A stretch of 64,000 bases of DNA, from positions 5,218-69,217 of the forward strand of contig JAFVRE010000051.1 in the NCBI GenBank assembly GCA_017504465.1, read 5' to 3'. The notes under the pieces are model-generated. The model was not told the origin of the DNA. It did no database searches and saw only the letters and a list, made by a program, of their open reading frames with translations. Every line of letters begins with the position of its first letter. The stretch's first letter is position 1. Shown here in pieces: positions 10,244 to 29,801 of the stretch. Both the position numbers and the translations under genes were made by a program. Source of the stretch: Clostridia bacterium (GTDB taxonomy: Bacteria; Bacillota; Clostridia; Christensenellales; Borkfalkiaceae).

Positions 10244-10696
10244 ATGGCAATTAGAAATATCGTACAAGTCGGCGACGACGTATTAAGACAGAGATGCGCG
10301 GAAGTAGAAACTTTTGATGAAAAGCTTTGGTCGCTTTTAGACGACATGAAAGACACGGTCAAAAAAGAACAAGGCGCAGGGCTTGCCGCTCCGCAGGTCG
10401 GCGTACTCCGCCGCGTTGTCGTTGTGGACGTTGAACAAGGCTATTTTGAGTTTATCAACCCCGTAATCTTGTCCCAAAAGGGCGAGCAAAGCGGCTGGGA
10501 AGGCTGTTTGTCAGTAGTAGGCAAAAGCGGAATCGTATCCCGTCCCATGAAAGTAAAACTCGCTTACCAAGACCGTTACGGTGAAAAATATCTTCTTCAA
10601 GCCAAAGGCTTTTTCGCTCGCGCCATCTGTCACGAACTCGATCACTTGGACGGCGTGTTATATATAGACAAGGCTACGCACATTCAAAAGGTTTGA
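10244..10696 (+). CDS. def: peptide deformylase
   Basis: Three signature motifs GLAAPQVG, EGCLS, HELDH. Confidence 0.95.
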   Translation: MAIRNIVQVGDDVLRQRCAEVETFDEKLWSLLDDMKDTVKKEQGAGLAAPQVGVLRRVVVVDVEQGYFEFINPVILSQKGEQSGWEGCLSVVGKSGIVSRPMKVKLAYQDRYGEKYLLQAKGFFARAICHELDHLDGVLYIDKATHIQKV

Positions 10697-10698
10697 TT

Positions 10699-10790
10699 GA
10701 AATGAATTGACGGCTTTGCCGTCATGAATTGAAATCAAAATTTCATGAATTGGTTATACCATGAATTGCAAACGCTGTTTGCATTATGGA
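10699..10790 (+). repeat. array of four direct (C)ATGAATTG words separated by short hairpins, upstream of the four-helix-bundle ORF
   Basis: ATGAATTG at 10703, 10725, 10746 and 10762. Intervening stems are acggc/gccgt, aaat/attt and caaac/gtttg. Confidence 0.85.
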
Positions 10791-10810
10791 AATATTAAGG
10801 AAATAAAAAA

Positions 10811-11176
10811 ATGAAACAAAACGCGTTAGTTGTCTTATCAAAGGAATTTGCCGTTCAAACGATAAATTTGTGCGAAAAACTTAAAGAAAACGGACGGGCA
10901 AACGTTTTAATCAGTCAATTATTACGAAGCGCAACAAGTATTGGCGCAAATATTCACGAAGCGAACTATGCGGCAAGTAAAGCTGATTTTATCAATAAGC
11001 TCCAAATTGCGCTTAAAGAGTGTTACGAAACAGACTATTGGCTTGATGTTTTTAAAAGCGCTAGTGTTATAACGGAACACGAGTATCAAGACTCTTTCTC
11101 AAAATGCAGTAAATTAAGAAGGCCGTTGATATCTTCCATTAACACGGCAAAAAGCCAGGAAAACACTTTTTTATAA
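10811..11176 (+). CDS. four-helix-bundle protein (23S rRNA intervening-sequence protein / Avd-like family)
   Basis: 121 aa, helical. Family-like core RSATSIGANIHEA...KADFINKLQIALKECYET.YWL. Confidence 0.75.
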   Translation: MKQNALVVLSKEFAVQTINLCEKLKENGRANVLISQLLRSATSIGANIHEANYAASKADFINKLQIALKECYETDYWLDVFKSASVITEHEYQDSFSKCSKLRRPLISSINTAKSQENTFL

Positions 11177-11185
11177 GTTCTACCG

Positions 11186-11290
11186 CAATGAATTTTACTT
11201 TTAAAATTCAATTCATGTAGAAAACGCCGTTTTCTACAATTCATGAATGCGCAGCGTTCTATTCACGACGAGTATTCGTCAATTCATTAA
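11186..11290 (+). repeat. inverse array of CAATTCAT(G) words with interspersed hairpins, downstream of the four-helix-bundle ORF
   Basis: CAATTCAT at 11209, 11237 and 11280. Perfect 9-bp hairpin gtagaaaac/gttttctac lies between two of them. Confidence 0.85.
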
Positions 11291-11308
11291 CCACGCTTGG
11301 AGGTTATT

Positions 11309-12436
11309 ATGGCAGGAATTTATATTCATATCCCTTTTTGTAGGCACAAATGTTCCTATTGCGATTTCGCATCTTTTCCTGACAAGATAGACTACGCGGA
11401 AGCGTATATGGCATGTCTATACAAAGAATTAAAAATGCGCGGTGACGAGCTGAAAGATTACGTCTTTGACACCGTATATTTCGGTGGCGGTACGCCTTCG
11501 TATATTCCGCCTAAGCTTATTTTAGGCGCAATGAATCAAATTAAAAAATGTTTTACGCTTAGCGAAAATCCCGAGATTACGCTGGAACTCAATCCCGGGA
11601 CGATAGGTCAAGCAAAGGTGGATACCTATAAACAAGCGGGAATTAACCGCTTCTCCATCGGGCTTCAAACGGCAATTGACGAACAACTCGAAGACCTTGG
11701 CAGAATCCACAACGCGCGCGATTACGTGTACGCAACCAGCCTTTTGAAAGGCGAAAATTTCTCTACCGACGTAATGCTCGGGCTTAAAAATCAGACCAAA
11801 GAAGACGTACGCAAAACGATTGAGCTTGCAGTCAAATGCGGATCAAAGCACATATCCATGTACGCGTTGACGGTGGAAGACGGCACGCCGATCTATACTG
11901 ATTACTTAAACGGCGAACTGCCCGATTCCGACGAGGTGGCGGAACTTTACGATTACGGTTACGCGCTGTTAAAAGACTACGGCTACGAGCGTTACGAGGT
12001 TTCCAACTTTGCAAAAGACGGTTTTGAAAGCAAGCATAATTTGAACTACTGGAAACGTGGAGAATATATCGGCGTAGGGCTTTCGGCAAGCTCGTTCATG
12101 CGCGGAAAACGATTCACAAACACGTTCAATCTTGACGAGTATATGAAATGTATCATTTCAGGCTTCTATCCCGCAGTTACGAGCGAAGACGTGAAGGGAT
12201 GGGACGCGAAATTCGAGTACGTCATGCTCGCTTTACGCACCAAGTACGGCGTTTGTATGTCCGAATATAAACAAGCATTCGGCACGACGCTCGCTGAAGA
12301 TTTCCCCGTCGCGCTCAAAAAAACTGTTAAATATTTGCAGCTCGACGGCGACAATTTGCGGATCAAGGACGAATATCTTTACACACAAAACAGTATTCTT
12401 ATATATTTCATGGAAGAACCCCATGAGAATGGTTAA
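11309..12436 (+). CDS. hemW: radical SAM heme chaperone HemW / coproporphyrinogen III oxidase-like protein (start at the ATG after GGAGG)
   Basis: CxxxCxxC cluster motif CRHKCSYC near the N-terminus. GGGTPS motif and HemN-like C-terminal domain. Confidence 0.88.
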   Translation: MAGIYIHIPFCRHKCSYCDFASFPDKIDYAEAYMACLYKELKMRGDELKDYVFDTVYFGGGTPSYIPPKLILGAMNQIKKCFTLSENPEITLELNPGTIGQAKVDTYKQAGINRFSIGLQTAIDEQLEDLGRIHNARDYVYATSLLKGENFSTDVMLGLKNQTKEDVRKTIELAVKCGSKHISMYALTVEDGTPIYTDYLNGELPDSDEVAELYDYGYALLKDYGYERYEVSNFAKDGFESKHNLNYWKRGEYIGVGLSASSFMRGKRFTNTFNLDEYMKCIISGFYPAVTSEDVKGWDAKFEYVMLALRTKYGVCMSEYKQAFGTTLAEDFPVALKKTVKYLQLDGDNLRIKDEYLYTQNSILIYFMEEPHENG

Positions 12437-29276: not shown

Positions 29277-29327
29277 CCGTTCGCTTACTTAGCGATTTGA
29301 ACGGTGAAATAAAAAAGGAGTTTGGAT

Positions 29328-29801
29328 ATGGAAAATCAGATTTGCTTTCGGTGTAAAAAGCGCCCTGCCGTGAAGACACGCAAGTGGACGACCGACGGGG
29401 TTACGCGCGCTTTTTATTACTGCGCAAACTGCTACGAAGAAGTTTTCTTGTCGAATGAAGAAGAGACAGTCGAGGAAAACAACTCTTCTTCCGTGGGGGT
29501 ATGTCCCGAATGCGGCACGACGTCGCAAGAATTTTTCGCGATCGGGCTTGTGGGTTGCGCAAGCTGTTATAAGTATCTTGAAAAGGACGTTTTGCCGACC
29601 ATTGTCAAACTCCAAGTCGGGCGAGCGCACTGCGGGAAACGTACCGCGCTCACGGAAGAGCGCGAAGTGCTCATTTTAAAACGCAACAACGAACGCGAAC
29701 AGGTAGAGCGCTGCCTTGCCGAGCATCGTTACGAACAGGCGCAAGGACACTTAAAAAATCTCAAAGAACTGAATAAGCTTTTATACGGAGGGGAGTCGTA
29801 A
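29328..29801 (+). CDS. mcsA: McsA-like protein (CxxC zinc fingers plus UVR-like C-terminus)
   Basis: CFRCKK...CANC and CPECG...CASC pairs. Located directly upstream of mcsB with a TAATG overlap. ATG follows AAGGAG. Confidence 0.7.
   Translation: MENQICFRCKKRPAVKTRKWTTDGVTRAFYYCANCYEEVFLSNEEETVEENNSSSVGVCPECGTTSQEFFAIGLVGCASCYKYLEKDVLPTIVKLQVGRAHCGKRTALTEEREVLILKRNNEREQVERCLAEHRYEQAQGHLKNLKELNKLLYGGES

Follow-up and report, generated by a model that had tools for sequence, protein, structure and literature searches.

An Intervening-Sequence Protein Gene Enclosed by Inverted Word Arrays and Inserted between def and hemW in a Clostridia Bacterium

Introduction

A 64,000-nucleotide stretch of DNA from a Clostridia bacterium (GenBank assembly GCA_017504465.1, contig JAFVRE010000051.1, positions 5,218 to 69,217 of the forward strand; henceforth the window, numbered from its first letter) carries, between def and hemW, a gene of the IVP family (23S rRNA intervening-sequence protein) that is bounded by two inverted arrays of an 8–9-nt word, ATGAATTG. 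The unit at 10701–11288 (588 bp) is a genuine insertion polymorphism. With moderate confidence, it is regarded here as a mobile or recently mobile cassette of the intervening-sequence (IVS) type, which ends in its own word arrays and is tolerated in an intercistronic spacer; the hairpins between the words probably act in DNA, and the pairing of the words in RNA. Across phyla, inverted arrays of a short, lineage-specific word stand alongside the gene at 98 of the 100 IVP loci examined. The inverted word arrays around the gene had been described in an original prediction made from the letters of the window alone; that observation is confirmed, and the interpretation attached to it, an IVS-like cassette, is partly supported.

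To our knowledge, the IVP family still has no known function in spite of solved structures since 2006–2007, and the movement of IVSs has been an open question since the early 1990s. The window offers a clean filled/empty pair outside rRNA, and it led to a testable rule by which an IVP gene goes together with a lineage-specific word. If true in complete genomes, the rule defines the moving unit, names candidate nucleic-acid ligands for the IVP protein, and may tie the enigmatic heptamer repeats of bacteria to a gene; it also explains the small "four helix bundle protein" genes found inside restriction, CRISPR, and efflux operons.

Insertion at the def–hemW Junction

Orthologous junctions were found in several metagenome contigs through HemW orthologues of 93–95% identity. 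In contig L093 (HemW 94% identical), the order priA–def–hemW–M42 peptidase is kept, the def–hemW spacer is only 27 nt long (TAAaacattcactcacattaggagattattATG), and neither words nor an IVP gene are present, whereas L001 and L333 hold the cassette at the same site as the window. The insertion postulated in the original prediction is thus borne out by the junction comparison, although the argument given for it, namely that def is usually followed by fmt, is irrelevant, since L093 shows the def–hemW adjacency to be native and more distant relatives have lepA–hemW instead. Divergence among the window, L001, and L093 is much the same for each pair (synonymous divergence, dS, of hemW ~1), which places the gain or loss of the cassette within a group at genus level.

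The boundaries of the insertion coincide with the outermost words, which form a perfect 12-nt terminal inverted repeat at both ends of the cassette, and the empty L093 is without everything from the left terminal repeat onward. At the right junction, the filled L333 reads ...gtCAATTCActcacattagg and the empty L093 reads TAAaacATTCActcacattagg; the pentamer ATTCA is common to this junction and the empty site (aacATTCActcacattagg), and the insertion therefore abuts, or used, a pre-existing linker pentamer. The IVP gene is the sole open reading frame (ORF) of the cassette with a family match. The flanking genes, priA–def upstream and hemW with an M42 peptidase gene downstream, all lie on the + strand, and G+C runs at 0.34–0.38 over the cassette against mostly 0.46–0.50 inside these genes.

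The same spacer is occupied by other material in further relatives. An unrelated insert of ~280 nt with a 31-nt tandem duplication (tagaaaatataggtcaagggattatcccttg) was observed in L331 (1197–1490) and L332 (1–90), and the def–hemW spacer thus looks like a hot spot of small insertions. L097, which has the usual lepA–hemW order, carries a 370-nt spacer (1640–1990) with repeated blocks of its own (cttgaatatataagctacgcatttctg...; gccttgaactgcttgcttctctattcaagcac twice) that are unrelated to ATGAATTG.

Word Arrays and Hairpins of the Cassette

Eight copies of ATGAATTG occur in the 64 kb against 2.6 expected, and seven of the eight fall within 590 bp, four on the + strand upstream of the IVP gene and three on the − strand downstream of it (Table 1). 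Each hairpin stem opens with the word-final TG and closes with the CA of the next word; an array hence strings together palindromes closed by TG...CA, with a five-base linker between them that reads TGAAT upstream and ATTCA downstream. Upstream, every one of the four segments between words is a hairpin; the downstream array has three hairpins along with one degenerate word. The original prediction had located the three complementary downstream words exactly, had noted hairpins between them, and had placed a hairpin after each upstream word, as found here; its upstream coordinates were one base too high, and its statement that the stems differ completely did not hold, because the stems are homologous between species and covary. 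The inner, apex-side hairpin is shared by L001 (ATGAATTGCG ttct CGCAATTCA) and L333.

Pairing between the two arrays, which had also been predicted, is recovered in the minimum free energy (MFE) fold of 10690–11300 (611 nt; z = −2.7), and co-folding of the two arrays alone gains −15.6 kcal/mol, compared with −6.1 ± 2.5 for shuffled partners, through 38 inter-array pairs. With Rfam covariance models at the gathering score, no rRNA or other family was found in the window and none in 20 related loci; a permissive Rfam scan of one of the relatives (L024) gave weak matches only, none with E < 0.9 and all far under the gathering scores. A second locus of the window flagged by the inverted-word score (29322–29801) was rejected as coding sequence with two chance 7-mers.

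Table 1. Features of the cassette and of its two junctions in the window.
Feature	Position	Strand	Remarks
def stop codon TGA	10694–10696	+	Left terminal inverted repeat begins 5 nt later
Left terminal inverted repeat AATGAATTGACG	10701–10712	+	Left boundary; perfect 12-nt complement of 11277–11288
Forward (F) array	10702–10785	+	Four ATGAATTG words (10702, 10724, 10745, 10761), a TG...CA-closed palindrome after each
F hairpin 1	10708–10724	+	TGACGGC/GCCGTCA
F hairpin 2	10730–10745	+	TGAAAT/ATTTCA
F hairpin 3	10751–10761	+	TGGT tat ACCA (arms TGGT/ACCA)
F hairpin 4	10767–10783	+	TGCAAAC/GTTTGCA
Truncated fifth word of F array	10782–10785	+	cATT
Shine-Dalgarno-like AAGGAA	10797–10802	+	8 nt 5' of IVP start; read from sequence, putative function
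IVP gene, PF05635/TIGR02436	10811–11176	+	366 nt, 121 aa
Inner (apex-side) hairpin	11188–11216	+	ATGAATTTTACTTT with AAAATTCAATTCAT; inward-facing word paired with first reverse word
Reverse (R) array	11209–11288	−	CAATTCAT words at 11209, 11237, 11280
R hairpin	11216–11238		Arms TGTAGAAAACG/CGTTTTCTACA
R hairpin	11245–11259		GAATGC/GCGTTC, GCA loop
Fourth, degenerate word of R array	11260–11266		tATTCAc
R hairpin	11267–11280		GACGA/TCGTC
Right terminal inverted repeat CGTCAATTCATT	11277–11288	+	Right boundary, 10 nt 5' of hemW Shine-Dalgarno
hemW Shine-Dalgarno GGAGG	11299–11303	+	hemW start at 11309

The IVP Gene and Its Protein

The family assignment made in the original prediction, a four-helix bundle of the 23S rRNA IVS protein/Avd-like kind, was upheld by profile and structure searches alike. 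The protein matches PF05635 (23S_rRNA_IVP) with E 2.9e-24 and 85.8 bits (cut-off 33.8) and TIGR02436 with 96.7 bits (cut-off 24), and its sequence matches the Protein Data Bank entry 2RLD with E 2.7e-24. An AlphaFold2 (AF2) monomer model of mean confidence (pLDDT) 90.6 has four helices (residues 5–26, 34–51, 57–83, and 89–118), and in Foldseek it resembles 2RLD (BT_0352), with template-modelling (TM) scores of 0.83–0.87, Xcc0516 (2GSC; 0.70–0.82), and Avd (4DWL; 0.71–0.76, at 14% sequence identity). The entry 2RLD holds five chains, and Xcc0516 is described as a pentameric toroid (Lin et al. 2006, as cited in PMC4990558).

The conserved motif of the IVP family, RxxxSxxxNxxE (PMC3936711), is present as R39–S43–N47–E50 (LLRSATSIGANIHE), and across 36 aligned sequences from several phyla its columns either do not vary or reach at least 90% conservation. 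Between the window and the L001 allele, the ratio of nonsynonymous to synonymous substitution (dN/dS) is 0.058, so the protein is maintained by strong purifying selection, even though the two IVP alleles are 77% identical as against 94% for HemW; three other pairs of loci gave 0.005–0.1, and a fourth was saturated at synonymous sites. The family is large, with at least 7,994 homologues from one search, and the window protein fits no defence-system model of PADLOC.

Related Loci in Oscillospirales

One genome per species was scanned for relatives, which gave 80 loci with IVP proteins 63–72% identical; all are uncultured Clostridia/Oscillospirales bins, bar one contig assigned to Victivallaceae. 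The words of the window are present at every one of the 77 loci whose upstream sequence was long enough. The arrays thus accompany further members of the family, and the outcomes that would have refuted the original prediction were not observed. The order of the parts mostly differs from that of the window. At 61 of the 77 loci the two arrays stand back to back on the upstream side of the gene (F–R–IVP), with a further F array downstream at eight more (F–R–IVP–F) and a further F–R copy at two (F–R–IVP–F–R); the gene is enclosed as in the window at two loci (L049 and L091), three have an R array only, and one has an F array only. The predicted IVS-like cassette was largely right in architecture and mobility, but its enclosing layout is rare in the order, where 71 of 77 loci have the arrays upstream.

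Where a second F or F–R copy follows the IVP gene, it is nearly identical to the first and is succeeded by an unrelated host gene (AraC-like, HAD, pyruvate kinase, or TfoX-like). The neighbourhoods of the 80 loci yielded no transposase; 42 of these loci directly follow a PF05958 uracil-C5 methyltransferase gene, with highly variable genes downstream.

Covariation was assessed by an explicit count of structures on aligned F arrays. Across species, 95.4% of the cells in homologous F arrays are paired, with 12 double changes in five pairs; the score was reached by none of 500 shuffles, and slid controls pair in 25–50% of cells. Other approaches to the arrays were discarded: RNAalifold produced a spurious word-to-word helix on F arrays because of indels; MFE folds of canonical F–R elements were unstable, as identical words allow many registers, and no evidence for one structure was drawn from them; and small ORFs through the arrays were dismissed, the word spacing not being consistently a multiple of three (L021).

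Distant Homologues

Twenty-two distant IVP genes, 30–56% identical, were collected from plasmid and phage records with hosts among cyanobacteria, Bacteroidota, Chloroflexota, Spirochaetota, and others. Inverted arrays of a lineage-specific word occur at 20 of them, enclosing the gene in 16 and lying both upstream in four, and usually comprise about four 7-nt copies; by the same score, only ~3 of ~400 control ORFs outside the family reach two or more inverted words. For instance, two Nostoc plasmids have (CAATTCG)x4, the IVP gene, and (CGAATTG)x4. Other enclosing words are TAATTCG in Nostoc and Dolichospermum, GGTCGGA and AAGTCGC in other Nostoc strains, ATTCAAA in N. flagelliforme, ATTTTAG in Gloeocapsa and Chlorohelix, ACCAGTG/TGGTCAC in Euhalothece, and TAGTGAT in Bernardetia. 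The four loci with both arrays upstream are three phage records with GTGAAAT, ATGAAAT, or GTGATAT plus hairpins and a fourth from Treponema. One further locus, a Monoglobus IVP pseudogene between hsdS and hsdR, has a plain inverted repeat, and another has other repeats only.

Proteins at loci with the same word are 82–89% identical, those of related cyanobacterial groups with different words 69–84%, and those of more distant loci 30–63%, and the correspondence between word and protein spans different hosts and insertion contexts. The word tracks the phylogeny of the protein, and gene and arrays are therefore inherited together. Moreover, as the gene is enclosed in 16 of the 22 distant loci, the layout of the window is typical of the family; the common F–R–IVP layout of Oscillospirales looks derived. 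Most distant loci lie between co-oriented operon genes, such as RND adaptor/permease, helicase/methylase, and DUF1156/Swt1-family HEPN, and one gene is reversed, between cas2 and cas1.

Several distant loci have peculiarities of their own. The Treponema saccharophilum plasmid pTS1 (L321:1150–1480 and 1837–1930) carries the longest array seen, with ~40 tandem GAAAGNN heptamers followed by inverse CTCTCCG-type heptamers before the IVP gene and more inverse heptamers after it. In the phage record MT835815 (L319:870–1000), the GTGATAT word-plus-hairpin unit with its IVP gene starts immediately after an apparent tRNA gene 3' end and a terminator hairpin. The one clear exception to the word arrays is a Pseudanabaena plasmid, in which a tandem repeat of ~33 nt (ttcaatcttcatttttccgcctttattcttccc) precedes the IVP gene beside cas1 (L343:480–680).

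Probable DNA-Level Palindromes and Gene-Less Arrays

Of 107 F segments, 99 satisfied the hairpin criterion, as did 34 of 39 R segments, compared with ~30% of shuffled controls. In a separate set of 267 distinct hairpins, which was pre-filtered to at most one mismatch per stem, the 1501 pairs include 26 mismatches, only six of them G-T and 11 A-C. By contrast, a conserved hairpin just 3' of the IVP gene in related loci has frequent G-U pairs. Loops were read on the strand that bears the ATTCA linker; in the R array this is the mRNA strand, and in the F array it is the other one. On that strand, GNA accounts for 78 of 156 triloops and GNNA for 39 of 88 tetraloops. C(GNA)G triloops make very stable minihairpins in DNA. 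The near-absence of G-T pairs and the strand symmetry of the GNA loops therefore argue that the palindromes were shaped at least partly at the DNA level. UNCG and GNRA tetraloops were also considered as evidence for RNA and set aside, because most loops are triloops and the GNA loops of the F array lie opposite the mRNA strand. On this conclusion the two ends of the element are read alike, with which an RNA role for word pairing remains compatible; an RNA-only reading is thus incomplete, since the hairpins have the look of palindromes formed in DNA.

Apart from the gene, the arrays form a dispersed repeat in their own right. An unbiased metagenome scan for three words listed at least 120 stretches, among which 58 held genuine word-plus-hairpin arrays; an IVP gene lay on the same stretch for ~5 of these 58 listed arrays, within ~150 nt for four. 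The arrays are therefore not specific to the gene, a correction to the original prediction: they are mostly gene-less and occur on phage contigs as well. They take the forms of F alone (up to seven or eight units), F–R, or R then F, and stand after terminators, before start codons (e.g., that of the ribosomal protein L9 gene), or between convergent genes. Adjacent identical units in L224 and L221 imply that arrays grow by slippage. On viral contigs, 94 pattern matches were mostly unrelated tandem repeats of giant-virus bins, and ~10 matches on eight contigs looked genuine after the hairpin filter. Genuine ATGAATTG arrays without an IVP gene were seen on the phage contigs L180, L182, L146, L150, L143, and L115: the F–R unit of L180 (− strand, from ~2571) is directly 5' of a capsid-like gene, one phage-contig unit precedes a small membrane protein gene, and the unit of L115 has a ~90-nt insert at its apex.

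Proposed Mechanism and Alternative Explanations

Under the favoured explanation, a promoter-less IVP gene with its own ribosome-binding site would have been inserted as a single unit between def and hemW and would be read through from the priA–def operon. Read-through is the simplest reading because a scan found no promoter-like or terminator-like site on the + strand inside the cassette, with overall counts no higher than in shuffled sequence. In the transcript, the arrays would pair with each other and set the IVP cistron apart within a long interrupted helix like that of ORF-bearing 23S rRNA IVSs, and insertion would be tolerated only where the RNA can be cut or structured harmlessly, such as at rRNA helix tips and in cistron spacers. 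The inter-word palindromes may act in single-stranded DNA during spread or maintenance, and the gene-less arrays may be non-autonomous derivatives or scars.

Several points weigh against an IVS-type mobile cassette. The scarcity of G-T pairs and the strand-symmetric GNA loops indicate DNA structure over RNA structure, and the word helices, which are broken by hairpins every 9 bp, are unlike a canonical RNase III substrate; helices of nine bp with junctions between them would probably be cut poorly by this enzyme. Arrays far outnumber IVP genes in the metagenome scan; they occur in both orientations to their neighbours, and among solo arrays co-orientation prevails by only about two to one. At the 71 Oscillospirales loci with both arrays upstream, the paired arrays do not include the gene. 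No clear target-site duplication was seen, the left junction has no direct repeat matching ATTCA, and no transposase, recombinase, or reverse transcriptase is encoded within ~5 kb of the cassette. Furthermore, the empty site may alternatively reflect loss by precise deletion.

A partnership between the protein and the repeats is the main open alternative, tentative but plausible, and compatible with a mobile cassette. The IVP ring would bind the words, about one per subunit, as single-stranded or duplex nucleic acid; the arrays would be operators or substrates for autoregulation, for control of the next cistron, or for mobilisation of the arrays, and IVP plus arrays would be the autonomous form, like the REP-associated tyrosine transposase (RAYT) with its repetitive extragenic palindromic (REP) sequences. 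Family members are homopentameric, to judge from 2RLD and Xcc0516, and arrays commonly have four full words and a partial fifth (the window, L337, L341, and L322). The word is strictly conserved across Oscillospirales as stems drift, it changes with the protein lineage, and the last R word lies 10–15 nt before a Shine-Dalgarno sequence, that of hemW here and that of the IVP gene in canonical loci. Polar residues of the protein (Q36, T42, S43, S56, K63, E70, E73, Y76, and W77) are invariant across phyla, and its structural relative Avd occurs in an RNA–protein complex with a reverse transcriptase of a diversity-generating retroelement (DGR; 8UBE). However, words are spaced by 7 nt in cyanobacteria versus 16–22 nt here, and one geometry fits both only if the hairpins fold out; some arrays hold 13–40 words (L327, L324, and L321); the F and R words are complementary, so that a single-strand binder would recognise only one of them; and co-variation of word and protein is expected from plain co-inheritance as well.

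More doubtful than this partnership at the window is its generalisation, in which IVP proteins would be dedicated binding, maintenance, or mobility partners of short-word arrays, and an IVP gene flanked by inverted copies of such an array, built of its own word, would represent the autonomous form of a very widespread element. The gene-less derivatives would then include the short tandemly repeated repetitive (STRR) sequences of cyanobacteria, the GGGAATC repeats of Xanthomonas, the Clostridia and phage arrays, and ORF-less 23S rRNA IVSs. If true, this would give a function to the IVP family and an account of IVS spread.

It is unlikely that the association is incidental, with the arrays an independent host repeat of the REP/bacterial interspersed mosaic element (BIME) kind or like a miniature inverted-repeat transposable element (MITE), in or beside which an IVP gene landed. 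The ~5 gene-bearing arrays among the 58 listed, the solitary arrays before or after unrelated genes and on phage contigs, the duplication of units by slippage, and the unrelated ~280-nt insert that the def–hemW spacer of L331 also accepted would all agree with such an accident. Yet the empty L093 is without arrays as well as gene, the arrays are kept in 77 of 77 relatives, IVP genes of other phyla are flanked with like geometry by different words, which follow the protein tree through different insertion contexts, and control ORFs are almost never so flanked.

A cis-regulatory RNA leader, riboswitch-like or an attenuator, for the IVP gene, hemW, or both is more improbable still. The arrays do occupy 5' untranslated positions near ribosome-binding sites, the hairpins covary, and the fold is more stable than that of shuffled sequence. 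No Rfam family was matched, though, and the stems are almost purely Watson–Crick when the neighbouring RNA-type hairpin is rich in G-U; the GNA bias falls on opposite strands in F and R, and solo arrays occur in both orientations and at the 3' ends of convergent genes. Lastly, an Avd accessory protein of a DGR is highly improbable: the fold resembles Avd, and no other Pfam family is as common near DGRs as PF05635 (PMC10053308), but sequence identity to Avd is low, no template/variable repeat pair was seen in 10600–11400, and a scan of the neighbours within ~5 kb (rpoZ, priA, def, hemW, M42 peptidase, and NUDIX) showed no reverse transcriptase among them.

Comparison with Known Systems

The cassette would work like an IVS and yet is not one, as it lies outside rRNA. 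The ORF-bearing IVSs of 23S rRNA have an inverted-repeat stem cut by RNase III, and that of Coxiella has GACAGAT heptamer repeats before its ORF (PMC4990558). Like those of Leptospira, Coxiella, Xanthomonas, and Brucella, the window element holds a PF05635 ORF inside inverted repeats capable of forming a stem, is sporadic among relatives (empty in L093; filled in the window, L001, and L333), has short tandem words next to the ORF, and carries the ORF in sense within the host transcript. In contrast to them, it lies between def and hemW and not in helix 25 or 45, its arms are arrays of 9-nt words broken by palindromes instead of a continuous stem, and strong purifying selection acts on its gene, unlike the decaying ORF of Coxiella. 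Elsewhere, IVP genes have been reported between cmr3 and cmr2 and among other cas genes (PMC3936711) and in insertions of rRNA genes of the candidate phyla radiation (CPR; PMC11270868), and both papers call IVP "functionally uncharacterised".

The likeness to REP/BIME sequences with RAYT and to MITEs (Correia, ERIC, and BOX) lies in dispersed intergenic palindromes in direct and inverted clusters, a single-copy gene flanked by repeats, a predominance of gene-less copies, and positions inside operons. In REPs, the hairpin itself is conserved. Here, the linker word and the TG/CA closing pairs are conserved and the hairpin sequence varies, with 267 distinct forms; IVP is a four-helix bundle without known catalytic activity; and neither an HUH or DDE enzyme nor a clear target-site duplication was seen. 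A REP/RAYT system was accordingly rejected, as the stems vary and no RAYT-like gene is present. Similarly, terminal inverted repeats stand at the exact ends, as in a transposon or MITE, but no transposase is encoded by the cassette, and none was found beside the 80 related loci.

The heptamer repeats of Xanthomonas (GGGAATC) and Nostoc are tandem, intergenic, often in convergent pairs, and called enigmatic (PMC4692102), and that paper makes no mention of S23p, a four-helix-bundle protein, or intervening sequences. Words of the CCCCAAT and TGGTCA types, which are like these repeats, flank IVP genes in Planktothrix and Euhalothece; the words of the window differ in being 8–9 nt long and separated by hairpins. 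In the searchable, and incomplete, literature, nothing relevant to the word itself or to a tie between IVP and heptamer repeats was found beyond the Coxiella paper, and no paper was found that links IVP generally to inverted word arrays. With Avd of DGRs, the window protein shares the four-helix-bundle fold; it differs in its low identity and in having no reverse transcriptase or repeat pair nearby. An integron cassette was rejected, because the neighbourhood has no integrase gene and the words are unlike the attC core consensus, GTTRRRY; a CRISPR-like array was rejected as well.

Other Observations at Related Loci

At methyltransferase-linked loci, a conserved non-coding block of ~85–90 nt directly follows the IVP stop codon, for instance at L024:3345–3434 and also in L016, L022, L030, L034, L036, L038–L040, L043, L048, L051, L054, L056, L071, L077, and L079. 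Its consensus is roughly GGTTAAGGACAAATGTGA...TTTTACAGCAGT...ACATATCGAAAGGAG, with one small hairpin rich in G-U pairs and no Rfam match, and it ends in a Shine-Dalgarno sequence before highly variable genes. On the other side, a covarying hairpin, one arm of which consists of the last codons of the methyltransferase gene (VES...), stops just short of the first F word; it was seen in L003, L017, L024, L037, L048, and others, ~40 nt before that word. The tail of the methyltransferase gene is duplicated along with the F–R unit in L037, and in L261 this gene end precedes an array of F units only, with no IVP gene.

Extra leaders (F–R or R only) with the first 10–17 IVP codons and then other sequence, ~300 nt 3' of the IVP gene in L047 and ~740 nt in L053, are what is left of cassettes with internal deletions. 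In L031 and L057, a large serine recombinase gene adjoins the IVP locus upstream of the F–R unit, and some copies may therefore travel with prophages or integrative elements. One widespread gut species (L003:3366–4039, with the same genes in L004–L010) has a DUF7336 gene and a gene of the DNA-mimic family DMP19 after the IVP gene, and a DUF7336-like gene also follows it in L028 and L086. In L049, an 18-nt direct repeat (TATACAAAAGAAAGAGTG), which might be a target-site duplication, flanks the F–IVP–R unit, and the neighbouring host gene is itself tandemly duplicated.

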